Of a stretch of DNA of 64,000 nt, positions 13,541 through 26,825 are shown piece after piece. Positions within the stretch are counted from its first letter, which is position 1, and the number at the start of each line of letters is the position of its first letter. This DNA comes from Desulfosudaceae bacterium (GTDB lineage: Bacteria; Desulfobacterota; Desulfobacteria; Desulfobacterales; Desulfosudaceae). The position numbers and the translations under genes were made by a program. The notes beneath the pieces were generated by a model. The model saw nothing but the letters and a program-made list of their open reading frames with translations. It had not been told where the DNA came from and made no database searches. The stretch lies in assembly GCA_963674745.2 (NCBI GenBank), contig CAXXDV010000001.1:448001-512000 (forward strand), in the 5' to 3' direction.

Positions 13541-13587
13541 GTTTCATTCTTTTGAAACTGTTGCAACAGCGTTGCGATAGTTGCAAC
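13541..13587. promoter_or_regulatory. Candidate enhancer (UAS) palindromes
   Basis: GTTTCA-N6-TGAAAC, TGTTGCAACA, GTTGCGAT, GTTGCAAC clustered between atuA and its divergent activator. Confidence 0.5.
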
Positions 13588-13635
13588 GCATTCAGCATCA
13601 CAACCCATGCACATTGTTTAACGGAGAAGATACAA

Positions 13636-15033
13636 ATGACATCCCGCCAGGACATCATGCACGCCCCAAGCTACCCGGAAATGAAACAGATGCTGGATTG
13701 CCTTAAAATCAGCTACTGGCTCGTGGACCTGGATTTTACCCTGCTCGACGTGAACGAGACCTTTCTGGAGTGGACGGGTGCCAGCCGGGAAAAGCTGGTC
13801 GGCCGCAATATGCTGACCCTGGTTTCACCCGAAGAAGCCGCCTATTTCCGGGAACAGGTCAAACAGATTCAGCACAAGGACAGTGCCGAATATGAATTTT
13901 ACGTTTACGGTCCGGAAAACAAGGAAAAAATCCCGGTCATGTTTTACATGATGGTCAATCGTAACAACAACGGGCAACCGGTTTCCTGCAATGTGGTCAT
14001 ATCCGATATCAGGGCTCAGAAAAGCCTTGAGGAAAAAGAGCGGGAACTCTTTCATGCCCGGCGAAAAATCCGCCAGGACGCCCTGCGCACCCACATGATC
14101 GGCACCGGCAGGGCCATGGAGACCGTGTTTTATGCCATCATGCGTTGCGCCGAAGTGGATTCGCCGGTTTTGGTCACCGGTGAGACCGGTGTCGGCAAAG
14201 AAGTGGCCGCCCGGGAGATTCATGCCCACAGTGAACGTCGCGACAAACCCTTTGTGGCGGTCAATTGCGGGGCATTGCCGGGAGAGTTGTTGGAAACGGA
14301 ATTGTTCGGGCATGTAAAAGGCGCGTTTACGGGAGCCACCACGGACCGGTTGGGACTGTTCCGTGAGGCGGCGGGCGGAACCCTTTTTCTCGATGAAATC
14401 GGTGACATGGAAAAACGGCTGCAGGTCAAACTGTTACGCGCCATTCAGGAAAACGAGGTCCGTCCGGTGGGGGATGACCGAAGCTATAAAGTGGACCTGC
14501 GGCTGATCTGCGCCACCAACCAGAATCTCCGCCAGCGTGCGGAGACCGGGGCCTTCCGGCTTGACCTGTTTTACCGGATTTCGGTCATACCGATTTATAT
14601 TCCGCCGCTGCGGGAACGAACCGAAGACATCATTAAACTGGCGGAATACTTTAACCGCAAGCACCCCAAACATATGCAATTTTCCGCCATCTCGTCGGAG
14701 GCGCGTCAACTGCTCTATCGCTATCACTGGCCGGGCAACATACGGGAACTACAAAACGCCATTGAACACGCACTGGTGATGAGCAAGGAAAGGATACTCC
14801 AACCCGAGGCCCTGCCCGAACAAATTCAGCGGCATGAAAGATCGTCTGATACCGGGAAGACCGTTCGAACAGGTGCAACGTTAAACCACAGACGCGACAA
14901 GCACGAATTCGACAAAAGAAAAATTATCAATGCCCTGAAAAAACATAATGGCAACCAGACAGCGGCGGCAAAGGATCTCGGGATTTCCCGGGTGACCCTA
15001 TGGCGCAAAAAAACCATGTACGGGATTGACTAA
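13636..15033 (+). CDS. PAS-domain sigma-54-dependent activator (Fis HTH)
   Basis: PAS-like N-terminus; [47 protein letters not shown]; start after GGAG. Confidence 0.92.
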
Positions 15034-15149: not shown

Positions 15150-15977
15150 TTGAAAAAACTGGATAAAAAAGTGGCGGTCGTCACCGGCGCCGCCATGGGA
15201 ATGGGAAAATGCATCGCCGGCATGCTGCTTTCTGAAGGATGCGCGGTAGCCCTGCTGGATGTCAACGAAACATTGCTTTCAGAAACCCGGGAGGACCTGT
15301 CCGAACTGGGGACATGCCAGGCTTTCGTCTGTGATGTATCTGATCGTGGCGCGGTCTACGAGACAGCCTCAAAAATTCGAAACGAAATGGGCCGGGTTGC
15401 TGTTCTGGTAAACAATGCCGGTATTGTAAAAGCCGGTGATTTACAGCAACTGGAAGATGAAACCATCGAAAAAATTCTGAATGTCAATCTGACTGCCGTG
15501 TTCTGGACCTGCAAGGCCTTTCTGCCGGACATGATCGACCAGGGGCAGGGACATATCGTGAACATGGCTTCTGCCGGCGGGATACTGGCCATACCAGGCC
15601 TGACGGCTTATTGTGCCAGCAAATTCGGGGTCATCGGATTTTCAGACGCATTGCGCCAGGAAATGGCCAAACACCAGGCCCATATCGGGGTGACCTTTGT
15701 CTGTCCCAACACGGTCAACACCGGCATGTTTGACGGTTCTAAAATGGTTACCGGCACATCCCTGCTTTCGGCGGAAAACGTCGCCGCACAGGTGATTAAA
15801 GCCATCAAAAAGAACCGTGCCATGGTGGCGGTTCCCAATGTCCCCGTAAAATTTCTGACCCCACTGACAAAGCTCATCATGCCGATCAAACTTATGGACC
15901 TGATGAACCGGGCGCTGGGTATGTGGACAGCCAATGATACATGGACCGGCCGGACGGCTGAAAAGAAAGGGGTGTAA
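15150..15977 (+). CDS. Short-chain dehydrogenase/reductase
   Basis: TGAAMGMG, NNAG, YCASK. Confidence 0.92.
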   Translation: MKKLDKKVAVVTGAAMGMGKCIAGMLLSEGCAVALLDVNETLLSETREDLSELGTCQAFVCDVSDRGAVYETASKIRNEMGRVAVLVNNAGIVKAGDLQQLEDETIEKILNVNLTAVFWTCKAFLPDMIDQGQGHIVNMASAGGILAIPGLTAYCASKFGVIGFSDALRQEMAKHQAHIGVTFVCPNTVNTGMFDGSKMVTGTSLLSAENVAAQVIKAIKKNRAMVAVPNVPVKFLTPLTKLIMPIKLMDLMNRALGMWTANDTWTGRTAEKKGV

Positions 15978-15979
15978 AC

Positions 15980-16594
15980 ATGGCCTCAATAACAAAGGTG
16001 ATGGTCAGCCTGGCACTGAACGGTTTTTCGGGATGGAAGGCCCTGACCATCGAGCAGATACTGGGAAAACCGGCCGAGGAAGTCCGGCTGGAAGATATGC
16101 GGGGGCTCTCACGCCGTCAGGTTTTAGACTTGTTCCACGCGGCAGACGCCCCGGAATTCAAAAAAATCAAGGGCGAATATAAGGCGGAGATTCTGCCGGC
16201 AGGCCCTTTTGCAGCGGTGGCCGCTTTTTACACCCATAAACTTTTCGGCCCCGGCCACTGGGAAGGCAAAGCCTTTTTTCCCTTCAGCGATCGGTCGGGT
16301 TGGGGGTACAATATTTTTTCCGTTAACAGGAAGAGTCGGGAAACAATGGCCCGTACCTGCAAAATGAACACCTGCCATGGCCTGTCCAATATAGACAACA
16401 AATGCTCCCTGCATCTGGACTATGCCGCTCATAACGGTTTTTTGAACCACACCATGCATGACGAAATTCGACGTATAAACGACGAATTGTATATCGGTAT
16501 GGGCTACATGAGTGTCGGCGGAGGACCGGCCAATCCGGCGCCGTTTGTACTTTTCGACAGGCCCTCTAAATGGGTAGGGCCGGACAAAACCTGA
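15980..16594 (+). CDS. Hypothetical protein
   Basis: 204-aa ORF 2 bp after the SDR stop; motif-like WEGKAF..GYN..LDY..DEIR..YIG. Confidence 0.7.
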   Translation: MASITKVMVSLALNGFSGWKALTIEQILGKPAEEVRLEDMRGLSRRQVLDLFHAADAPEFKKIKGEYKAEILPAGPFAAVAAFYTHKLFGPGHWEGKAFFPFSDRSGWGYNIFSVNRKSRETMARTCKMNTCHGLSNIDNKCSLHLDYAAHNGFLNHTMHDEIRRINDELYIGMGYMSVGGGPANPAPFVLFDRPSKWVGPDKT

Positions 16595-16744
16595 GGGCGG
16601 CTGATATTTATCCAGACCGTGTTACAGCTTGACCGCTGACAGCAACATGTATTACTTTTAATAATAATCCAAACTCAGGGGAAAGCCATGAGATCATCCA
16701 CATTCTTCACTCATTCAGCCCAAACCTTAAAACAGGCGTTATAA

Positions 16745-17025
16745 ATGACCCGCAAAAAAAGGGACCCTGATCGCGAATATGAAGAAGCCGTCAAGGATTT
16801 CAAAAAAACCTTTGTGAAAACCCGGGACTTTTTGGATTTTTCGGTGGATTAATGACCGGCTTTTTAATTGGGTGGGTACGTTGGTTTTTCGAACTTAAAC
16901 ATACCGGAAATATGTTTGAGGCAGCCGCAAAAACCATACCGGTAAGCATGTTTTTAGGCGGATTCATCTGCTTTATCGCCGGTACGATATTACACTTTAT
17001 TTTTGAATGGTTTAGAGACAAATAG
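16745..17025 (+). CDS. Small membrane protein, split at an A7 run (or two coupled small ORFs)
   Basis: MTRKKRDPDREYEEAVKDFKK in one frame, then a two-TM segment in the -1 frame ending TAG 17025; TAATG overlap at 16850-16854. Confidence 0.45.
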
Positions 17026-17043
17026 AGGGAAAAGGCCTTATTC

Positions 17044-18006
17044 ATGAAAGATGACACTGCGGACACAGGTCTGCAGACAGCCCATGACATCTGCCAGAAG
17101 CTGACCGCCAATATCGAAATCGTCATGCGGGGCCAGAGCGCCGCCATACGGTTGCTGCTGGCCGGTTTCGGCAGTGGCGGGCACATCCTGCTGGAGGACT
17201 ATCCCGGAACCGGCAAGACCACCCTGGCCAAAACCCTGGCTTTAAGCATCAACACCGGTTTCCGTCGTATCCAGTTCACACCCGACCTGTTGCCGTCCGA
17301 CATCCTGGGGGTTTCGATTTTCAACCAGCAAAGCCAGACCTTCAACCTGCACAAAGGGCCGATTTTCACCAACATCCTGCTGGTGGATGAAATCAACCGG
17401 GCTTCACCCAGGACCCAGTCCGCGCTGCTGGAAGCGATGGCTGAAGGTCAGGTCAGTATTGATGGTGAAGTCCGCCGTCTGGAAGACCTTTTTTTTGTCA
17501 TTGCCACCCAGAACCCCGTGGAGTCCCGCGGAACCTACCCCCTGCCCGAGGCCCAGATGGACCGGTTTGCGCTGAAATTCGACCTGGGCTATGTCTCTGC
17601 CGGAGAGGAAGTCGCCATCCTGACGGACCAGAAAGAAAGCCATCCCATTGAGCAGGTATCATCTTGCGTAGACACCGGCGATATTAAGACCCTCAAACAG
17701 GCCATCAACCAGGTACGCATCAGCGAAGAACTGAAAAATTATATTGTTGCCATCGTACGCCGGACCCGGAACATTGAAGGAGTTGAACTGGGTGCCGGCC
17801 CGAGAGCATCGCTGACGCTCATGAAAACCGCCAAGGCGATTGCACTGTATGACGGTCTTGAATACGTGACGCCGGAACATATTCAGGAACTGGCCGTTCC
17901 GGCCATTGCCCACCGCATGGTGCTGTTTCCCCAGGCGACATTTTCCGGCCGGACAACGGCGGATGTCGTAAAAGAGGCCTTGGAAGCGGTGCCGGTTCCC
18001 TCATAA
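17044..18006 (+). CDS. moxR: MoxR family AAA+ ATPase
   Basis: LEDYPGTGKTT, RIQFTPDLLPSD, DEINRA, ATQNP, LPEAQMDRF. Confidence 0.95.
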   Translation: MKDDTADTGLQTAHDICQKLTANIEIVMRGQSAAIRLLLAGFGSGGHILLEDYPGTGKTTLAKTLALSINTGFRRIQFTPDLLPSDILGVSIFNQQSQTFNLHKGPIFTNILLVDEINRASPRTQSALLEAMAEGQVSIDGEVRRLEDLFFVIATQNPVESRGTYPLPEAQMDRFALKFDLGYVSAGEEVAILTDQKESHPIEQVSSCVDTGDIKTLKQAINQVRISEELKNYIVAIVRRTRNIEGVELGAGPRASLTLMKTAKAIALYDGLEYVTPEHIQELAVPAIAHRMVLFPQATFSGRTTADVVKEALEAVPVPS

Positions 18007-18024
18007 CATGCCATAAAAAAACTG

Positions 18025-19377
18025 ATGATCAATCGCTTTCTCTATCGCAGCTACCGTTTTTTTTATGCCTGGCAACTGTGGCGCGAACGCCGGTTTAGCC
18101 GTGCCGGCTGGGTCCTGTTCTGCCTCGTCGGCGTCCTGGGGCTGTTCAGCCTGGAGACCAACCGGGCCATGGTTTATCAGGCGTTTGCTTTTCTTCTGCC
18201 CGTCATGGGCTTTGCCGTTCTTTTCAGCCTGTTCTTCAGAAGCCGGTTCGAAGTTCGACGTGAGCTTCCCCGATATGCCACCGCCGGCGAAAACCTGACA
18301 TACGCTGTTTACGTAACCAATAACAGCCGTCATCGTCAGCGGGGATTACTGGCCATCGAAAATATGGCCAATCCCTGCCCCGACATGGAAGAAATGCTAA
18401 CCATACCCGAGCCCGGAGAAAACAAACGTAATGCCTGGGATCGACGGGTCATGTGGTTCCGGTTTCAGTGGCTCATCAGACTGCGCAAACGGGCCGATGC
18501 CGGTGAATTCTCCCTGTTGCCCATGGAGCCCGGGGCCACGGTGAAAAACCGGGCCGTGCTCATGCCGCTGCGGCGTGGCCGCATCAACCTGACCGGCATG
18601 ACCATTACCCGTCCCGATCCGCTGGGACTATTCAAGGCAACGGCCCGTATCCAAAACCGTCAGTCCGCCATTATTCTTCCCCGGCGGTATCCGGTACCGT
18701 CACTGACGCTGCCCGGTGTCCGCCAGTATCAGCCGGGTGGCGTGGCCATGGCATCATCGGTGGGAAATTCACAGGAATTCTTTTCTGTCCGGGAATACCG
18801 TCCCGGAGACCCTTTACGCCACATCCACTGGAAAAGCTGGGCGCGAATCGGCAAGCCCGCAATAAAAGAATTCCAGGACGAATTCTTTGTGCGCCACGCC
18901 CTTATTCTGGACACCTTTGAGCCAAACGGAGAGACAGACGTTTTTGAAAGTGCCGTCTCTGTCGCGGCGTCTTTTGTTGATGCTTTTCAGTCACAGGAAG
19001 CGTTGCTTGATTTAATGTTCGTGGAAGACCGGGCCTATTGTTTCTCTTGTGGACGCGGATTGTCCGATACCGGACGGATGCTTGAAATTCTGGCGGATGT
19101 GACCGCCTGCCGGGATAAACCCTTTGAATCCCTGTGGCCGATTGTTTTTGAAAACGCGGCGCATTTAAGCGGTTGCCTGTGTGTTCTGCTGGGATGGGAC
19201 GAAACAAGGCGGAACTTTGTCCGGCAGTTACAGGCAATGCATCTGCCAATGTGCGTCATCATCATCAAAGACAGCCAATCCGAAAAGGAAATTGATCCGG
19301 ACCCCACACATGATCAGACCGCGGCGTTCCATGTCCTGGAAACCGGATCAATCAAAGAGGGACTTGCCGCCATATGA
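18025..19377 (+). CDS. DUF58 domain membrane protein
   Basis: N-terminal TMs; VREYRPGDPLRHIHWKSWAR; follows moxR. Confidence 0.9.
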   Translation: MINRFLYRSYRFFYAWQLWRERRFSRAGWVLFCLVGVLGLFSLETNRAMVYQAFAFLLPVMGFAVLFSLFFRSRFEVRRELPRYATAGENLTYAVYVTNNSRHRQRGLLAIENMANPCPDMEEMLTIPEPGENKRNAWDRRVMWFRFQWLIRLRKRADAGEFSLLPMEPGATVKNRAVLMPLRRGRINLTGMTITRPDPLGLFKATARIQNRQSAIILPRRYPVPSLTLPGVRQYQPGGVAMASSVGNSQEFFSVREYRPGDPLRHIHWKSWARIGKPAIKEFQDEFFVRHALILDTFEPNGETDVFESAVSVAASFVDAFQSQEALLDLMFVEDRAYCFSCGRGLSDTGRMLEILADVTACRDKPFESLWPIVFENAAHLSGCLCVLLGWDETRRNFVRQLQAMHLPMCVIIIKDSQSEKEIDPDPTHDQTAAFHVLETGSIKEGLAAI

Positions 19378-21344
19378 AACCGCCGCCTTTTATCATCACC
19401 GCTGCCATCCTGTTCTGGGGTGCCCACACCGGCATGATACCCGTTGCCCTGGCCATGGCCCTTCCCCTGGAATTGCCCCGCCTGGTGCAGCGCCGGTGGA
19501 ACTTTGATGACGCCGACTTTAACCGGGTGGCAGACATCTGCGCGGTGGTTATTATCGGCCTGTTTGTCTATTTTCTCAGCATCACGCCCATCAAGGCCCT
19601 CTATGCCGTCGGCAAATGGCTGCCTGTGGCCGTATTCCCCATAATGGCCGTTCAGTCATACAGCACGCAAGGCCGGGTGCGCGCCAGCTCCCTGATCTGG
19701 ATGCTGAGACGCGCGGAGGCCCGGGGTGAGATCACACCGCGTTACGTCGACCTGTCTTATCCTTACATCGCCATTTGCGTCATCGCCGCCGGGATCGCCA
19801 ATGTCCGAACGCCATGGTTTTATCCCGGTGTAATAGTTCTTTCCGTGTGGGCATTATTTCCGCTTCGCTCAAGGCGTTATCCCTTTGCCGTATGGATTAT
19901 CATTCTGACCTTTATCGGTTTTACCGGTTTCGGGCTGCATAACGGCATGCACGGCTTTCAAAAACTGGCCATGCGCTGGTATTACAAGAACTTCATGAGC
20001 CCCGCGGATCCTTTTTTTGCAACCACGGCCATCGGGGACATCGGTGAGCTGAAACCGTCGGGACGAATCCTGTTCCGGGTAAAACAGGCCGGGGCTGAGC
20101 CGCTCCCTGCCATGCTGATCGAAGGTGTTTATAATCTGTATGTCTCACGGGACTGGGTTGCCATGGGCGCCGACTTAAATTCAATAGACCCGGAAAACAG
20201 CACCAATAAATGGGTCCTGACCGCCGGCGCCGACCTCAAAGCCGCCGCAACAATAGCCGCCCCTCTCAAACGGGGCGAGGGAATACTGAAACTGCCGCCT
20301 GACACCATTGAAGTCACAAATCTGCCTGTGGCCGCCATCCATCAGAACCGGTTAGGCGCGGTCACAGTGGATGGCGGTCCGGGCCTGGTCACATATACGG
20401 CCAAAACCGGGATATTAAAAACCGTTTCCGCTCCTGATCGATATGACTTAAAAATACCGCACCAGGAGAAAACGGTCATTCGTGACGTAGCCCGATCACT
20501 GGCGTTCGAGGGGCAATCACCGGATAAAATTGTTGCACGGTTGAGCAACTGGTTTCAGGAAGCGTTTACCTACTCCCTGGAACTGGAGGCGCACAAAAAA
20601 GGCACGGCACTGACCGACTTTCTTTTGCGCACCCGTTCCGGACACTGTGAATATTTTGCCACGGCAACGGTTCTCCTGCTTCGCGAAGCCGGTATTCCGG
20701 CCCGTTATGTCACCGGTTATGTTGTGCCTGAAAGAGCCGAGGACCCGACGGGCTGGGTCCCCGTCAGGGGCCGTCACGCCCATGCCTGGGCCACGGCATT
20801 TATCAATCAAAAATGGGTGCCCGTTGACACCACCCCGCCGGGCTGGATACAGGCGGAGGATGAGAACGCTGCTGTATGGGAACCGCTCTACAGCCGGCTG
20901 TCTGGCTTTTATTTCGCCTATAACTTGTGGCGTTGGGGAGAAGAGCGCAACCTGTCCAATTACCTGCTGTGGCTGCTGATTCCCATGATACTGTATCTCG
21001 GCCGTAGTCTTTTCCGTCGCCGGGTCACCCATAAAAATCAGACGGCGAAAACGCAAAAACGGATGGAGGCCATATGGCCGGGCACGGATTCGGCTTTTTA
21101 CCGGGTGGAACAGGCCCTTTTATCCCGGGGATACGACCGGTTTGAAGGCGAAACCCTGACGGCATGGATATTGAGAATACAGGCACATCTGCCCGACCGG
21201 GAACTGACGGATCACATAAAGACCTTACTGGCGCTTCACTATAAATACCGGTTTGACCCGATTGGCCTCAATCCGGATGAAAAAGAACGACTGGTCCGGG
21301 ATGCCGACCAGATTCTGTCAGGCATGGCGTCAAAAACAATATGA
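19374..21344 (+). CDS. TgpA-like membrane transglutaminase domain protein
   Basis: Multi-TM N-terminus; GHCEYFAT, RYVTGY, HAHAW, DTTP catalytic-triad motifs; ATGA overlap with DUF58. Confidence 0.9.
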   Translation: MKPPPFIITAAILFWGAHTGMIPVALAMALPLELPRLVQRRWNFDDADFNRVADICAVVIIGLFVYFLSITPIKALYAVGKWLPVAVFPIMAVQSYSTQGRVRASSLIWMLRRAEARGEITPRYVDLSYPYIAICVIAAGIANVRTPWFYPGVIVLSVWALFPLRSRRYPFAVWIIILTFIGFTGFGLHNGMHGFQKLAMRWYYKNFMSPADPFFATTAIGDIGELKPSGRILFRVKQAGAEPLPAMLIEGVYNLYVSRDWVAMGADLNSIDPENSTNKWVLTAGADLKAAATIAAPLKRGEGILKLPPDTIEVTNLPVAAIHQNRLGAVTVDGGPGLVTYTAKTGILKTVSAPDRYDLKIPHQEKTVIRDVARSLAFEGQSPDKIVARLSNWFQEAFTYSLELEAHKKGTALTDFLLRTRSGHCEYFATATVLLLREAGIPARYVTGYVVPERAEDPTGWVPVRGRHAHAWATAFINQKWVPVDTTPPGWIQAEDENAAVWEPLYSRLSGFYFAYNLWRWGEERNLSNYLLWLLIPMILYLGRSLFRRRVTHKNQTAKTQKRMEAIWPGTDSAFYRVEQALLSRGYDRFEGETLTAWILRIQAHLPDRELTDHIKTLLALHYKYRFDPIGLNPDEKERLVRDADQILSGMASKTI

Positions 21345-22321
21345 TGGTATCCGGTTTTTTTATGCGACAAAAAAGCCCCTTCAACCCGTCCACCCGGCGG
21401 ACCAACGTTATCACCGTTTCCCGGATCGCCGGCTGTTATATCGCCTGGTGCCTGCTGCAGGCCCTGATTTACGGGGCGGGTTTCATGTTTCCCCCGGCTG
21501 AGACCATGTCCTGTATTTTGATCCCCGCAGCCGTCATCGTTAACATTTTGTTCGCCTGCCAATTGACCCTCGCTCATCTGGTATACGTCGAACCAGTTCT
21601 GGCGCGCCGCCCGGTCTTTCGATCCCTGCTGATCATTGTCTGCCTGGCGCTTGGAACGGGCCTGCTCTTCTGGGCTCAAGGCAGAGGATCGACTTTTTTT
21701 ATCCAGACACTGTCGACCGCCAATCTTTTGGTGCTGGCCTGCCTGACAGGGCCCTGGCTCACGGTTTCCCTCAAGCGGCCTTCGGAAATCGTCCTTCTGG
21801 CCGCGCTGGTCCTGGCCATCGACGGGATAAGCGTGCTGGCCGGTCCCACGCGAACAATCAGCACTGTTCTCAAGCCGTTTTACAAAGGCGGCATGAAAGG
21901 TCCGGTACCGCTCAGCGACGCGCTGATTGTCAAAGCAGCCGTGCCCGGCCTGCCTCAGGCGATACCGGTGTTCGGCGTCTCCGACTGGATCATGCTGGTG
22001 TTTTTCGCGGCCGCCTGCGCCCGGTTCAATATCCGGGACAATCTTCTCGGCCCGGGGCTTGATAAACTTGTCCGCCGGAAACAACCCGGCCGGCCCTTCC
22101 TTCCCATCACCGGCGCCGGCCTTATCGCGGCCGTCGTCACGGCCCAGATCCTGGGCCTGTTTCTCCCGGCCCTGCCGTTTATGGCGCTGGCCCTGATATT
22201 ATATCTGACAATATGCTTTCCGGAAACACGGCATATGAAGCTGCGGGAATGGATCATCGCGGCCGCGTTAGTCACGGCTACCGGTGTCGTATGCCTTCTG
22301 GTTTTTCATACCGGCGGATAA
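21341..22321 (+). CDS. Polytopic membrane protein with presenilin/SPP-like (A22) aspartyl protease motifs
   Basis: LAIDGISVLAGP, FGVSDW and LPALP in presenilin order; ATGA overlap with tgpA. Confidence 0.6.
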   Translation: MMVSGFFMRQKSPFNPSTRRTNVITVSRIAGCYIAWCLLQALIYGAGFMFPPAETMSCILIPAAVIVNILFACQLTLAHLVYVEPVLARRPVFRSLLIIVCLALGTGLLFWAQGRGSTFFIQTLSTANLLVLACLTGPWLTVSLKRPSEIVLLAALVLAIDGISVLAGPTRTISTVLKPFYKGGMKGPVPLSDALIVKAAVPGLPQAIPVFGVSDWIMLVFFAAACARFNIRDNLLGPGLDKLVRRKQPGRPFLPITGAGLIAAVVTAQILGLFLPALPFMALALILYLTICFPETRHMKLREWIIAAALVTATGVVCLLVFHTGG

Positions 22322-22341
22322 ACGCCTAAACCGGGCCGCTG

Positions 22342-23115
22342 TTACTTTTTAATCAACTTCTTAAAATCCGGCTTTCGTTTTTCCAGAAAGGCCATTACGG
22401 CTTCCATGTTTTCCGGGCTGCCCGCCTGGCGGCTCATGGCATCATGTTCGGCGTCCAGGGCCGCCTGGATACCCGTCTTATGCATGACATTCAGGCACCG
22501 CTTGGTTTCTTTCAAGGCGTTGACCGGCCATTGCGCGATCTCCGCCGCTGTTTTCAGGGCGGTCTCCAGGACTTCGGCATCGCTGCACTTGGCCTTGGCG
22601 ATACCCGTTGCCACGGTTTCATCCGCGTCTACCCATTTTGAGCTCAACAGGATTTCCGCCGCCCGCTGGGTGCCGATTCTGGCCTGCAGCATATAGGTAC
22701 TGCCAAACTCGGGTGCCATGCCCAGGCTGGTAAACGGCACCCGCAGGCGCAGGCTTTCTCCGACATAAAGCACATCGCAATAAAACAGTATGGTCGCACC
22801 GCCGCCCACGGCAACGCCGGTGGCCGCGCCGATAAGGGGTTTGTCGAATTCAACCACGGCATCCTCACCGGTCCTGTATGAAGCACCGCCGCCACCGGGC
22901 AGGCTTTCAAAATCGCCCAGGTCCTGGCCGGAGCTGAAATTGTTACCGGCGCCGGTGATCACCACCACGTTGACATCATCGTCCTGCCTGGCCTCGTTCA
23001 GGGCGTCGGCAAGTCCCTGCCATTGCGCGGCGTTAAAGGCGTTTTTTTTATCAGGCCGGTTCAGGGTCACCACCAGCACACCGTCATTCAGTTCTTTTAA
23101 AACGACATCACTCAT
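22342..23115 (-). CDS. Enoyl-CoA hydratase/isomerase (crotonase)
   Basis: TLNRPDKKNA, FSSGQDL, GVAVGGG, LGMAPE. Confidence 0.92.
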   Translation of the reverse strand: MSDVVLKELNDGVLVVTLNRPDKKNAFNAAQWQGLADALNEARQDDDVNVVVITGAGNNFSSGQDLGDFESLPGGGGASYRTGEDAVVEFDKPLIGAATGVAVGGGATILFYCDVLYVGESLRLRVPFTSLGMAPEFGSTYMLQARIGTQRAAEILLSSKWVDADETVATGIAKAKCSDAEVLETALKTAAEIAQWPVNALKETKRCLNVMHKTGIQAALDAEHDAMSRQAGSPENMEAVMAFLEKRKPDFKKLIKK

Positions 23116-23262
23116 CTTTTACTTTCCCTTCAATAAGTTAACCGGTTATTTGTATCAAAATAACAACTTCATTTTCATTTCCGCCGATGACTCCCGGAAA
23201 AACCCAAGAGGCCGGAGTTTCAAAGGGTCAAGTGAACAGAAAAAAAATCACCCAGCACAAGC

Positions 23263-23297
23263 CCTTGGCCCCTCGACCCCTTGAATCCTTGAACCCT
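23263..23297. repeat. Octamer-periodic intergenic repeat
   Basis: ccttggcccctcgaccccttgaatccttgaaccct; reverse complement of 25774-25808 at 33/35. Confidence 0.75.
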
Positions 23298-23367
23298 TCA
23301 CAATGTATGCAAAATTTCGAGGGGTGCAGCGTAACACAAAGCAGAGCTCGAACGTTTTACAAAGCCA

Positions 23368-24618
23368 TTACCAGCGGCGGCCCAGCCATGCACTGATCGA
23401 GGTCCTTATCAAATTAGGCGTCAGCCTGGCGCCCAGAGCGACATAACCGCCCGGCGGTTTCTTGTAATCCGCAACCGGCTTCATGGTGATCGCCCGGGCC
23501 TTGTCGCAGGCCACGACACACTGGCCGCAACCCACGCAGCGTTTTAAATCATGATGGTGGGTCTTGTTGCGGGTGTCCACCGTTATGGCGCCCATGGGGC
23601 AACGCAGGGCGCACTTGGCGCAATGGTCACAGGCGTTCATATCAAACACCGGCAGATATCGCGGCGGCGCGATCATGGCCGGCATGTTGTACTGGGTCAC
23701 GGTCTGCATCATATGGCAGCAACAACCGCAGCAGGAGCAGGAGGAGCCGCCGTATTTCCCCGAATCTTCATTAAATATCCAGCTCACCAGACCGGCCTGT
23801 TCGGCCTGACATTTTATTTCAACCGCTTCCTGTTTATCGATAATACGCGCCTTTCCGGCATCGGCCAGGACTTTCACAACCCCTTCCCCGAAAATCACAC
23901 AGTTTTCCAGGGGGCGTCCGCAGCCCCGCCCGGCCAGTATTTCGGTCATTCTGCACTGGCAATTCGTGACCCCAAAGATATGATAACGATCCATGATCTC
24001 CTCCAGGCGATCCGAGGGCAGGGCCACTTGCTGGGCCTCCAGAGTATGATGGCCGGGAAGGTAACGAACGGCCGGCAGATCATATTTCAGATAATCGGTC
24101 AGAAAGCCGGTTTCCACCAGGCGCTCAAACAATTCGGCAAACCGGCGCTGCCAGTCGGACAGGTTGTCCAGGGCCGTGGTCATCATAACCGCTTCAAAGG
24201 TGCCGGGTAAGATAGGCATGACCGCGTATTTTCGTTTTGGCCCGTCTCCCGTGGCCAGGAGAATAAATTTCTCGCGGCTTAAATGATCCAGTATTTTCCG
24301 TACCTCTTCCACCGGCCGCTGGCTGGCCTTGGCCGCTTTCTGAGCGGTCATGCGGACCATGGGCTTAAAATGCCTCACGATATCCGCTTCTTCCTCCGTA
24401 AACATATGCATGATCAAATCCATCAGCTCGTCACAGACTGGCGGACCGGCAAGGCGGGTGGAAGAATAGAGCCTGGCCGTATCCCGGAAGGCTTTAGGCA
24501 CATCCGGGTAAGCACCGAGTGGCTTAATATTGACACTCTTGGTCAGGGGGGGTTTGGGCCCGACGATTCCCTGATTGACTTCAATGATAGTCGTGGCCTT
24601 GGATTTTTCGTCCGCCAT
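23368..24618 (-). CDS. 4Fe-4S dicluster protein with extra Cys-rich motifs
   Basis: CQCR..C..C, CSCCGCCC, CDHCAKCALRCP, CVGCGQCVVAC. Confidence 0.85.
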   Translation of the reverse strand: MADEKSKATTIIEVNQGIVGPKPPLTKSVNIKPLGAYPDVPKAFRDTARLYSSTRLAGPPVCDELMDLIMHMFTEEEADIVRHFKPMVRMTAQKAAKASQRPVEEVRKILDHLSREKFILLATGDGPKRKYAVMPILPGTFEAVMMTTALDNLSDWQRRFAELFERLVETGFLTDYLKYDLPAVRYLPGHHTLEAQQVALPSDRLEEIMDRYHIFGVTNCQCRMTEILAGRGCGRPLENCVIFGEGVVKVLADAGKARIIDKQEAVEIKCQAEQAGLVSWIFNEDSGKYGGSSCSCCGCCCHMMQTVTQYNMPAMIAPPRYLPVFDMNACDHCAKCALRCPMGAITVDTRNKTHHHDLKRCVGCGQCVVACDKARAITMKPVADYKKPPGGYVALGARLTPNLIRTSISAWLGRRW

Positions 24619-24635
24619 AATTTTCTCCCTTTGTC

Positions 24636-25760
24636 TTATTCAGGAAAACACTGCCCGGGTTTTTCGCCGGCTTTTTCCTTGAGTTCTTTTAAACCCGGCC
24701 GGGCGTATTCCATGTGCCCTTCCTTTAAGGTGGGGCCATTGATGATGACCTCGGATCTGAGCCGGCGGCCCATGGTTTTTTCCATATTCCTGCCCAGTTT
24801 TAACACCTTCCGGACATCATAGCCATGATCGATGCCCATCTCATCCAGTTGCACGATCAAATCTTCCAGGCAGACGAGCCCCACATATCTGGGGTCGTCA
24901 TAATAGTAATCCCCGGTGCCCTTGACCGGACAGTCATCGAGGAAATTGGCGGGCTGCCCGCCCAGGCCGCCCAGGGTGGCCTCGAAGTTGGTGATACCCG
25001 CCTGCAGGGCCGCCAGAATAGAGGCCGAAGCCACGCGCTTGGTTTCATGAAAGTGGGCGATATGCCTGGAGACATCCGGGATTTCGTCCAGGACCATGGA
25101 AAAATAGCGATACACTTCAGGGGCCGAGGCGCTGCCGTCATGGTCGGCATGCTCGACATCACTGGCCCCGATATCAAGCCATCTTTTCGTGAAAGTGACG
25201 GCGTCTTTCATGTCGGTTGCCCCGCCGATGGGACTTCCCCAGATGGTGCTGACCGTACCGCACATCTTCATACCCGCATCACGGCACTTCTTGATGGCCC
25301 GCTCGGCTTCGGCCCAGTACCGGGGCAGCGTGATACCGGAATTGGCATAATGGTGCTCTTCTTCGGTGGATACCATCATCAGGCACCTGTCCGGCCCTAC
25401 GCCCGCTTCTCTTAAGCGGATGGCCTTGTCAACCGCAGGCTCCCGGATGGTCACCGCCGTAAAGCAGATATCGGCCGGATTAATCCCCCGCTTTTCACAA
25501 CCCTTGATAAACCGTTCGCTCCGGAAGTACTTAAGTACCTCTTCGGCGTCCCGAAACTGCGGCATGATATAAGGATTGCCGAGGTTGGTCAGTTCAATAT
25601 ACCGGCAACCGGCAAAAATCAGTTCTTCGGCGTAATGAATTTTGGCCGCGGTTGAAATAAACTTCTCCTCGTGCTGAAACCCGTCCCTGACGGTAATGTC
25701 ACCAATCGTGACTTTTTTCGGCATTCTGGGGAAAACTTTCCATAAATCATGTTCGGACAT
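24636..25760 (-). CDS. HMG-CoA-lyase-like DRE-TIM metallolyase (pyruvate carboxyltransferase domain)
   Basis: TVRDGFQHE, HFHET, GGLGGQP (no active-site-loop Cys). Confidence 0.8.
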   Translation of the reverse strand: MSEHDLWKVFPRMPKKVTIGDITVRDGFQHEEKFISTAAKIHYAEELIFAGCRYIELTNLGNPYIMPQFRDAEEVLKYFRSERFIKGCEKRGINPADICFTAVTIREPAVDKAIRLREAGVGPDRCLMMVSTEEEHHYANSGITLPRYWAEAERAIKKCRDAGMKMCGTVSTIWGSPIGGATDMKDAVTFTKRWLDIGASDVEHADHDGSASAPEVYRYFSMVLDEIPDVSRHIAHFHETKRVASASILAALQAGITNFEATLGGLGGQPANFLDDCPVKGTGDYYYDDPRYVGLVCLEDLIVQLDEMGIDHGYDVRKVLKLGRNMEKTMGRRLRSEVIINGPTLKEGHMEYARPGLKELKEKAGEKPGQCFPE

Positions 25761-25773
25761 ATACACCTCTTAT

Positions 25774-25808
25774 AGGGTTCAAGGATTCAAGGGGTCGAGG
25801 GTTCAAGG
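25774..25808. repeat. Octamer-periodic intergenic repeat
   Basis: agggttcaaggattcaaggggtcgagggttcaagg. Confidence 0.75.
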
Positions 25809-25870
25809 TTCTTCCTGAACGGCCTCATTAACACTTTTAAATATTTTCTATGGTTCGGTTGAACACCAAC

Positions 25871-25926
25871 CACATAATCACATAAACACTTAACCGCCTA
25901 AAACCTTAAAACTCTAAAACCATAAA
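25871..25926. repeat. Degenerate 8-nt tandem repeat (7 units)
   Basis: cacaTAAt cacaTAAa cactTAAc cgccTAAa acctTAAa actcTAAa accaTAAa. Confidence 0.7.
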
Positions 25927-25946
25927 ACCAAATCCTATTCTGACTT

Positions 25947-26825
25947 TCACGCCGCCCCGATTTTACTCAAAATAAACGCCGAAGCCGCATCCAACTTTTC
26001 CAGATCCACGCCGCAATCAATATTCAGCTTATCGAACAGATAAACCAGATGCTCGGTGGCGACATTTCCCCGGGCGCCCCGGGCAAACGGACACCCGCCC
26101 AGCCCACCGGCCGAGCCATCGAAAATCGTGACGCCGGCCTCGAGCCCGGCCATGACATTGGCCACGGCAATACCCCGTGTGTCATGAAAATGAAGGGCCA
26201 TTTTTTCAAGCCCGAACCGTTTTTCGACCCGGCCCAGAAGTTCCTTTACCTGCCGGGGACCGGCCACACCGATGGTATCGCTCAAGACGATTTCATAGGC
26301 TCCCAGCGTCAAAAACCGCTCGACAATTTTCATTAAAAGCGATTCATCGATTGAGCCTTCATCCGGACAGCCGAAAACCATGGAGATCAGCCCCCGAATA
26401 TTCATGCCGTGACCAGCGGCAACCCGGGCCACGGCCGCGATGTCCTTTAACGAACCTTCGACATCCCGGTTGATGTTTTTCCGGTTGAAGGTGTCGGACG
26501 GCGAAGTAAACAGGGCGATGGTTTTCACCTGACAACGGACGGCCCGCTCCAGCTGCTTTTCATTGGGCACCAGGGCCGTCAGCCGTATGCCCTGGCCTTT
26601 AAGCCCGGATATTAACGGATAAAAAGTATCCGCATCACCAAGCTGGGGAATCCGTCCGGGATCAACAAAACTGGTCACCTCAAAATCAGTTAAGCCCGCG
26701 GCCAGGAGCTTGTCAAAGAACGCCTTTTTATCCTCCGTGGAGATGACCGGGCCGGTTTCATTCTGAAGCCCGTCCCGCAAGGCCACCTCGACAATCTTAA
26801 CCTTTGGCGGAAAACCGGAAAGCAT
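25947..26825 (-). CDS. liuE: Hydroxymethylglutaryl-CoA lyase
   Basis: VEVALRDGLQNE, SDTIG, LHFHDTRG, GGLGGCPFA, GNVATE. Confidence 0.9.
   Translation of the reverse strand: MLSGFPPKVKIVEVALRDGLQNETGPVISTEDKKAFFDKLLAAGLTDFEVTSFVDPGRIPQLGDADTFYPLISGLKGQGIRLTALVPNEKQLERAVRCQVKTIALFTSPSDTFNRKNINRDVEGSLKDIAAVARVAAGHGMNIRGLISMVFGCPDEGSIDESLLMKIVERFLTLGAYEIVLSDTIGVAGPRQVKELLGRVEKRFGLEKMALHFHDTRGIAVANVMAGLEAGVTIFDGSAGGLGGCPFARGARGNVATEHLVYLFDKLNIDCGVDLEKLDAASAFILSKIGAA

Follow-up and report, generated by a model that had tools for sequence, protein, structure and literature searches.

Does the last open reading frame (ORF) of a bacterial MoxR-DUF58-TgpA cluster encode an intramembrane protease of the presenilin/signal peptide peptidase (SPP) type, and does it work together with the three genes in front of it? 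The ORF, called ORF4 here, lies in a 64,000-nucleotide stretch of DNA from a Desulfosudaceae bacterium (contig CAXXDV010000001.1 of assembly GCA_963674745.2, positions 448,001 to 512,000 of the forward strand), which we analyzed as a whole and refer to as the window; all coordinates given are positions in the window. An initial annotation, made from the sequence alone, had proposed that ORF4 is a bacterial A22-like protease with a noncanonical active site and that it forms an envelope module with the MoxR, DUF58, and TgpA proteins. Our analysis indicates that ORF4 probably acts on its own, as a di-aspartyl intramembrane protease that has a GxSD site and the orientation of SPP. The ORF4 gene is normally solitary, and its placement behind the triad is a genus-level arrangement that does not represent an obligate four-part system.

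The translation of ORF4 holds the three motifs that had been picked out before, in the order first Asp, GVSD, and PALP and at the codons listed in Table 1. We aligned 86 of 105 collected proteins, omitting 19 short fragments (alignment A2; mean column identity, 27%), and found that the first Asp, D161, is conserved in 85 of the 86 sequences and the second, D215, in every one, as the initial annotation would lead one to expect. S164 is just as constant as D161 (85/86), the G168-P169 pair is invariant, and G212 is kept in 83 sequences. The third motif has an invariant P276, followed by A277 in 69 sequences and L278 in 66. Since these positions are near-invariant in homologues that average so little column identity, the motifs represent more than a chance resemblance. 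The noncanonical GxSD site is also borne out: ORF4 has GVSD, and Ser is the commonest residue at position 214 (46 sequences, with Thr in 20, Ala in 14, Gly in 3, Val in 1, and Pro in 1). Position 160, directly before the first Asp, is Ile in ORF4 and Ala in 56 of the aligned proteins, with Val in 15, Ile in 6, Ser in 4, Thr in 4, Gly in 1, and no Tyr. The family also has conserved residues of its own, namely, P190 (86/86), Y181 (82/86), K198 (79/86), D193 (78/86), and E149 (77/86), some of which sit in the loop between the two Asp residues.

Homologues of ORF4 were found by several routes. A word-indexed search with the ORF4 protein returned 12 homologues besides ORF4 itself, and a phmmer search over 1.84 billion representatives returned 93 proteins at an E value of ≤1e-3, 80 of them at ≤1e-10 and 35 at ≤1e-30. 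The word-indexed search repeated with A2 added a single new protein, P0106, and none of its matches carried a Pfam A22 annotation. The farthest members of the family bear a canonical GVGD or GIGD, and a search with these distant GxGD members (A3) brought in further relatives, none of them annotated by Pfam and some labeled as Gaiellales bacteria. The family is thinly spread: when the A2 profile was run on an even sample of 201 genomes of the phylum, the window's own genome gave the sole match, and the ORF4 protein matched 7 of 61 close-relative genomes, the window's own included. As judged from these alignments and searches, ORF4 is a member of a real, conserved, rare, and uncharacterized bacterial family. 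A shorter subgroup of relatives (P0113 and P0115 to P0117; 241 amino acids [aa]; two labeled Gaiellales) has IGASD or IGARD at the position of GxGD and is missing most of the inter-Asp loop, yet matches Pfam Presenilin at an E value of about 2e-3; this subgroup may represent the fold in a minimal form.

We built two structural models of ORF4, one with AlphaFold from a 13-row alignment (model 1; predicted local distance difference test score [pLDDT], 85.1; predicted template modeling score [pTM], 0.85) and one with AlphaFold 2 (AF2) from the 86-row alignment (model 2; pLDDT, 92.8; pTM, 0.90). Both models predict nine long helices, a short helix at residues 169 to 182, and a hairpin formed by residues 196 to 199 and 208 to 212. 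The nine helices match the number in the presenilin/SPP fold, and D161 falls within the predicted helix 148 to 167, as the first Asp of A22 enzymes falls within a helix. When each model was compared by VIA-align with all 48,161 cluster representatives of the PDB, the same four A22 chains took ranks 1 to 4 for both: SPPL2a (9k93_A), with a Z score of 11.8 for model 1 and 11.7 for model 2 (198 residues aligned; root mean square deviation [rmsd], 3.7); the archaeal presenilin/SPP homolog PSH (4hyc_A), with 9.3 and 9.0 (175 aligned with model 2); presenilin-2 (PS2; 7y5z_B), with 9.0 and 8.7 (157 aligned with model 2); and presenilin-1 (PS1; 4uis_B), with 8.1 and 6.7. The next, unrelated chain scored 7.6 for model 1 and 6.3 for model 2, and with model 2 just three chains reached a Z score of 8, all of them A22. 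Foldseek, an independent aligner, placed exclusively SPPL2a, PSEN1, or PSH at ranks 1 to 12 and 1 to 13, with probabilities of up to 1.00. The fold match is convincing because it is specific: all A22 clusters come out on top, and nothing else does, with two models and two aligners. The presenilin/SPP-like fold that had been proposed from the sequence is thus upheld by the predicted structures.

Two further comparisons concern neighboring families. No chain of the A24 class (type IV prepilin peptidase/FlaK) was among the best 50 Foldseek or VIA rows, and ORF4 has a conserved PAL motif, which A24 enzymes are not known to have. In a protein-language-model atlas, the nearest named cluster to ORF4 is "Signal peptide peptidase domain-containing" (score, 0.89), with PF04258 on 24% of its members, and a PF06550 cluster comes next (score, 0.77).

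A sequence link to the A22 proteases runs through the relatives that carry GxGD. By itself, ORF4 matched no Pfam or NCBIfam model at an E value of ≤1, PF04258 and PF06550 included, and no PDB chain at all, and the single relative P0102 gave no A22 match against PDB chains. Pfam Presenilin was the best or the sole family matched by 6 of 10 further relatives from the A3 search (E values of 2e-4 to 3e-3), always at profile positions 327 to 398 of 408, which span GxGD to PAL. We aligned A2 with an alignment of the GxGD subgroup (A4) by hhalign, and the two alignments matched with a probability of 99.9 and an E value of 8.6e-32, in a register that pairs D161, GVSD215, and PALP276 of ORF4 with D128, GIGD202, and PALP246 of A4. 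In this alignment the first-Asp motif of ORF4 lies on D-I-Y-S-V-x-x-G-P in the GxGD subgroup. Of 177,635 PDB sequences, eight were matched by the A4 profile, all of them presenilin-1 or presenilin-2 (best E value, 4.2e-4), and seven of the eight matches of the 13-row A5 profile were presenilins (best E value, 5.2e-5). The A4 and A5 alignments set GIGD against LGLGD385 of PS1 and PALP against P433-A-L-P, with D366 and P414 as the partners in PS2. The VIA alignments end with model residue 295 on residue 452 of PS1 and model residue 298 on residue 436 of PS2, which, if the last helix is ungapped, puts P276 on P433 of PS1 and P414 of PS2, in agreement with the sequence register. D161 is taken as the equivalent of the Asp in transmembrane helix 6 (TM6) of presenilin because it lies in the helix before the loop, stands in a D-x-x-S-V-x-x-G-P context, and is near-invariant. 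Based on the predicted structures and these profile alignments, we regard homology of ORF4 with the A22 fold as very likely.

Several observations weigh against placing ORF4 among the A22 proteases. On the structural side, the best Foldseek E value was 5.9e-3, with none at or below 1e-3; the Foldseek TM-scores were 0.24 to 0.45 with large rmsd values; and the VIA Z scores all lie under about 13, below which the tool cautions that a match between helical bundles can reflect a generic arrangement. The models have four helices before the helix of the first Asp and one after the PAL helix, versus five and none in A22 enzymes, and the structural alignments leave out everything before model residues 52 to 63. 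On the sequence side, ORF4 and the A1 and A2 profiles match no A22 PDB chain or Pfam A22 model, and among the 86 members of A2, two touch PF01080 (best E value, 0.037) and one touches PF06550 (0.098). The Pfam Presenilin matches of the relatives, at 17 to 21 bits, are all under the gathering score of 34.3 bits. HMMER with the A5 profile misplaced the region of the first Asp, which was not in register with D257 of PS1. ORF4 and its family lack the Tyr of the YD motif. At the position that precedes the second Asp, ORF4 has Ser, and just 3 of the 86 aligned proteins have the canonical Gly; this glycine matters for presenilin activity. The PAL motif does follow the first Asp and GxxD in the A22 order. 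Since ORF4 has neither YD nor GxGD and does not reach the gathering scores of the curated A22 models (PF01080, PF04258, and PF06550), we would rather class it as a sister family of its own within the presenilin/SPP superfamily than place it in A22. The initial reading of ORF4 as a bacterial A22-like protease thus stands for the fold, the two conserved Asp residues, and the PAL motif, with the second Asp and PAL in the presenilin register, and does not stand for the strict A22 signatures.

These mixed signals leave two readings of ORF4 to be weighed against proteolysis. The more modest one is that the resemblance to A22 arose by chance and that ORF4 is an unremarkable helical membrane protein in which three short motifs coincide. 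The motifs are indeed short, ORF4 alone has no significant A22 sequence match, and its Foldseek E values are above 1e-3, but a chance origin does not account for motifs that are invariant across 86 divergent homologues, for four A22 representatives at the top of 48,161 with both models, or for a profile link to presenilin chains (5.2e-5) through a subgroup that is itself tied to ORF4 at 8.6e-32. We therefore consider this reading highly improbable. The other accepts the presenilin fold and denies the activity: ORF4 would be a channel, transporter, or scaffold in which the buried Asp pair binds an ion or a substrate. The replacement of GxGD by GxSD, the missing Tyr of YD, and the extra invariant residues outside the A22 signature (Y181, P190, D193, K198, and E149) are consistent with such a change of function. 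However, what the family holds invariant is what A22 proteases need, that is, both Asp residues, the GP pair, and the proline of PAL; the residue before the second Asp is small (Ser, Thr, Ala, or Gly) in 83 of 86 sequences and grades into GxGD in the related subgroup; and neither structure search ranked a transporter or channel ahead of the A22 proteases. A nonproteolytic role is, in our estimate, unlikely, and we find it reasonably likely, as the models and conservation suggest, that the ORF4 family is homologous to presenilin/SPP and active as a cofactor-independent di-aspartyl intramembrane protease.

How such a protease would sit in the membrane can be predicted from its charges. Averaged over the 86 sequences, Lys plus Arg sums to about 11.0 for the N terminus and the even-numbered loops versus 4.5 for the odd-numbered loops. 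By the positive-inside rule, this excess suggests an SPP-like orientation, with the N terminus of ORF4 in the cytoplasm and the 45-residue loop between the Asp residues in the periplasm. An enzyme oriented in this way would likely act on N-in/C-out segments, such as leftover signal peptides and signal-anchored proteins. D161, in the helix before the loop, and D215, which opens the next helix, would face each other, with PALP opening the helix after next. The Asp pair, predicted to lie near the periplasmic face, would activate water and cut a transmembrane helix that enters laterally. In presenilins, a strand before GxGD and the TM6a helix serve substrate docking. The strand at residues 208 to 212, just before GxSD, may act like the substrate-pairing strand of presenilin, and the helix after GP may act like TM6a in docking the substrate. 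The enzyme would work alone on its N-in segments.

The second part of the question concerns the genes in front of ORF4 (Table 1). All four genes lie on the same strand, and the adjacent moxR, DUF58, and tgpA genes, identified by their Pfam domains, form a MoxR-DUF58-TgpA triad. In the translations we read GTGKT and VDEINR motifs in MoxR and GHCEYF, HAWA, and VDTTP motifs in TgpA. Hydropathy analysis gives N-terminal hydrophobic segments in TgpA and two in the DUF58 protein, with peaks at residues 27 to 45 and 53 to 71. Both the DUF58/tgpA and the tgpA/ORF4 junctions are ATGA overlaps, and the TGA stop codon of tgpA (21342-21344) is overlapped by the first ATG of ORF4. The description of a one-strand, four-gene cluster with ORF4 ATGA coupled to tgpA is therefore accurate, with a caveat about the start codon. 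Because the nearest homologues begin about seven residues downstream (alignment A1), Met8 (21362) appears to be as plausible a start for ORF4 as the first ATG, and with this start the overlap is replaced by a 17-base gap (21345-21361). In another genome of the same genus (G202), the gap between tgpA and ORF4 is 32 bp. Predicted regulatory signals were uninformative, with 5 promoter-like sites in 16400-23300 versus 4.4 expected and 12 terminator-like sites versus 9.6 expected. The arrangement in the window probably gives cotranscription of the triad and ORF4.

Table 1. Genes, ORF4 motifs, and flanking genes in the window
Feature	Position	Strand	Product or sequence	Evidence or context
moxR	17044-18006	+	MoxR-type AAA+ ATPase, 320 aa	Pfam AAA_3 4.2e-62, AAA_lid_2 4.8e-20
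DUF58 gene	18025-19377	+	DUF58 protein, 450 aa	Pfam DUF58 1.3e-7, residues 254-336
tgpA	19374-21344	+	Membrane transglutaminase-like protein, 656 aa	Transglut_core 1.5e-22 (373-486), DUF4129 6.3e-5 (574-642)
ORF4	21341-22321	+	Predicted presenilin/SPP-fold polytopic membrane protein, 326 aa from first ATG	AF2 model and structure searches
First Asp motif	21821-21847	+	VLAIDGISVLAGP, D161-G-I-S-V-L-A-G-P169	D161 codon 21821; end of predicted helix 148-167, then helix 169-182
Second Asp motif	21974-21988	+	FGVSDW (G212-V-S-D215-W)	D215 codon 21983; start of predicted helix 213-228, just after predicted strand 208-212
PAL motif	22166-22177	+	LPALP (P276-A-L-P)	Pro276 codon 22166; start of predicted helix 277-292
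Sigma-54 activator gene	13552-15033	+	PAS-domain sigma-54 activator	Sigma54_activat 1.2e-66, HTH_8
SDR gene	15150-15977		Short-chain dehydrogenase/reductase (SDR)	Flanks the cluster upstream
204-aa ORF	15980-16594	+	204 aa	No Pfam match at E≤1e-4, no hydrophobic segment
Enoyl-CoA hydratase gene	22342-23115		Enoyl-CoA hydratase	Flanks the cluster downstream
Downstream genes	23368-26825	-	416-aa protein with C-terminal 4Fe-4S dicluster domain; two HMGL-like genes	Beyond the enoyl-CoA hydratase gene

We surveyed the neighborhoods of ORF4 homologues by tblastn with the window's MoxR, DUF58, and TgpA proteins (E value of ≤1e-5, up to 8 kb on each side). The triad was beside the homologue at none of 30 genome loci (Desulfobacterota-type or delta/Proteobacteria) and, at the same E value, at none of 39 metagenome loci, 21 of which extended at least 2 kb upstream. 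Among 60 relatives searched, 6 bear a homologue, and 1 of these has the triad next to it; 4 of the 6 appear already to be counted among the 30 genome loci. That one relative is the same-genus genome G202, which keeps the moxR-DUF58-tgpA-ORF4 order with identities of 85, 76, 66, and 60%; of these genes, ORF4 has diverged the most between the two species. A Pfam scan of 102 ORFs that flank the homologue at 28 of the 30 genome loci (L005 and L022 were left out) found no AAA_3, DUF58, or Transglut_core domain and no recurring partner; the sole AAA protein among these neighbors is Mg-chelatase-like and lies two genes away in L028. In three of five ORF4-bearing relatives there is a transglutaminase-core gene, and it is on a different contig. 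The proposed conserved module of MoxR, DUF58, TgpA, and a protease is not borne out by this survey, which found the linkage only in the window and in one genome of the same genus; the result counts against the system and leaves the fold untouched. We consider it highly probable that the linkage of the triad with ORF4 is lineage specific.

This distribution bears directly on the proposal of a dedicated envelope module of four interdependent genes with ORF4 as its protease, in which MoxR and the DUF58 protein would remodel a membrane client (such as TgpA or its substrate) or present it, and ORF4 would then cleave this client. The single strand and the short or overlapping junctions in the window are what such a module would show, as are the gene order kept in G202 and its short tgpA-ORF4 gap. 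Against it, no triad gene was detected at any of the 30 genome or 39 metagenome loci or in five of the six relatives, the neighboring ORFs lack all three domains, and the transglutaminase-core genes of relatives that carry ORF4 can lie on other contigs. ORF4 is also the least conserved of the four, and the overlap with tgpA requires a start codon that finds no support among the homologues. We therefore think such a module quite unlikely. About as doubtful is a reading in which ORF4 stands for an as yet undescribed bacterial branch of presenilin/SPP, a true SPP-type enzyme in SPP orientation whose "essential" glycine is replaced by Ser, Thr, or Ala, and in which it was recruited behind the triad in this genus and might cut the membrane anchor of the machinery or of its client. 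The stand-alone protease remains our preferred reading, and the MoxR-DUF58-TgpA neighborhood should not serve to infer the function of the ORF4 family.

The surroundings of ORF4 homologues have some features of their own. An SDR or enoyl-CoA hydratase gene adjoins the homologue at six loci (L003, L005, L018, L045, L049, and L052), and genes of these kinds also flank the cluster in the window. Because such genes flank both the homologues and the window cluster, the pattern suggests an older ORF4 neighborhood beside which the moxR-DUF58-tgpA block was inserted in this genus. An MFS_1 transporter gene lies directly upstream of the homologue in L015, L017, and L021 and on the opposite strand in L029. 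Only a few bases separate it from the homologue in L015 and L017, where both genes share a strand; no other neighbor recurs in a position that could be operonic. Within the window, the 204-aa ORF between the SDR gene and moxR starts 3 bases past the SDR stop codon, and the sigma-54 activator gene lies upstream of the SDR gene. L012 and L016 encode Fer4 proteins of about 355 aa, similar to the 4Fe-4S protein downstream of the window cluster, at a distance of two genes from their ORF4 homologues.

Full-text literature searches found no described bacterial presenilin/SPP family; the phylogeny of Raut et al. (2021), which lay outside their coverage, may mention bacterial sequences. In the portions of two reviews that address the class, one names only eukaryotic presenilin as an example of aspartyl intramembrane proteases (PMC7593790), and the other lists A22 enzymes for archaea and eukaryotes (PMC9263693). 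Databases already contain some bacterial A22B-like proteins, as indicated by the PF04258 cluster of the atlas, which is 61% bacterial. A bacterial family with the fold, both Asp residues, PAL, and GxS/T/A-D would widen the known range of the protease class and would test how strictly the GxGD glycine is required. Structural and mechanistic studies that bear on gamma-secretase would gain small proteins free of partners, and a candidate route for the clearance of N-in membrane segments in bacteria would be added. If the doubtful recruitment of an SPP-type enzyme behind the triad were true, the window would provide a bacterial model in which presenilin-type catalysis is tractable, together with a first way into the function of the enigmatic TgpA triad.

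The window's moxR, DUF58, and tgpA genes are ordinary members of the MoxR-DUF58-transglutaminase families in that order, and a cluster of this kind is described for Bifidobacterium in two papers (PMC8430577 and PMC6803598). Triads elsewhere have no presenilin-like fourth gene, which is appended only in this genus.

The presenilins (MEROPS A22A), with presenilin-1 or -2 as the catalytic subunit of gamma-secretase, resemble ORF4 in sequence where GxGD and PALP can be aligned through the bacterial GxGD subgroup (E value, 5.2e-5) and in structure with Z scores of 8.7 to 9.0 for PS2 and 6.7 to 8.1 for PS1. Both have a GP pair after the first Asp, followed by a short helix. Unlike presenilin, ORF4 has no partner subunits encoded nearby, its predicted orientation is opposite, and its inter-Asp loop is only about 45 residues long with a predicted hairpin, in contrast to the long cytosolic loop of presenilin.

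The SPP/SPPL proteins (MEROPS A22B) give the best structural match, human SPPL2a (9k92 and 9k93), with Z scores of 11.7 to 11.8 over 198 residues, an rmsd of 3.7 to 3.8, and rank 1 in Foldseek. ORF4 shares with them the nine helices; the order of Asp helix, long loop, GxxD helix, and PAL helix; and, by prediction, a noncytoplasmic inter-Asp loop. Like SPP, it probably needs no partner, because its gene stands alone in nearly all genomes. It differs in having no PF04258 match, in having A/I-D for YD and GxSD for GxGD, in its helix arrangement (four helices ahead of the first Asp, against five, and an extra one at the C terminus), in its predicted inside N terminus, in being bacterial, and in the invariant residues of its own in the inter-Asp loop. 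A paper on the archaeal homolog PSH states, in the part that deals with topology, that SPP is oriented opposite to presenilin and cuts type II substrates (PMC2947513).

PSH itself (MCMJR1; PF06550; 4hyc and 4hyg) bears the canonical YD and GxGD and ORF4 does not, and ORF4 has no PF06550 match; the PF06550 profile found nothing in the window's genome or in the 201 phylum genomes, whereas control archaeal genomes were matched. Both are prokaryotic, both are of about 300 residues and stand alone (for ORF4, by prediction), and they match in structure with Z scores of 9.0 to 9.3 over 172 to 175 residues. The putative catalytic pair of ORF4, at residues 161 and 215, can be set beside that of PSH, for which the same paper gives, in the section concerned, D162 and D220 in an enzyme that is active without partner proteins (PMC2947513).

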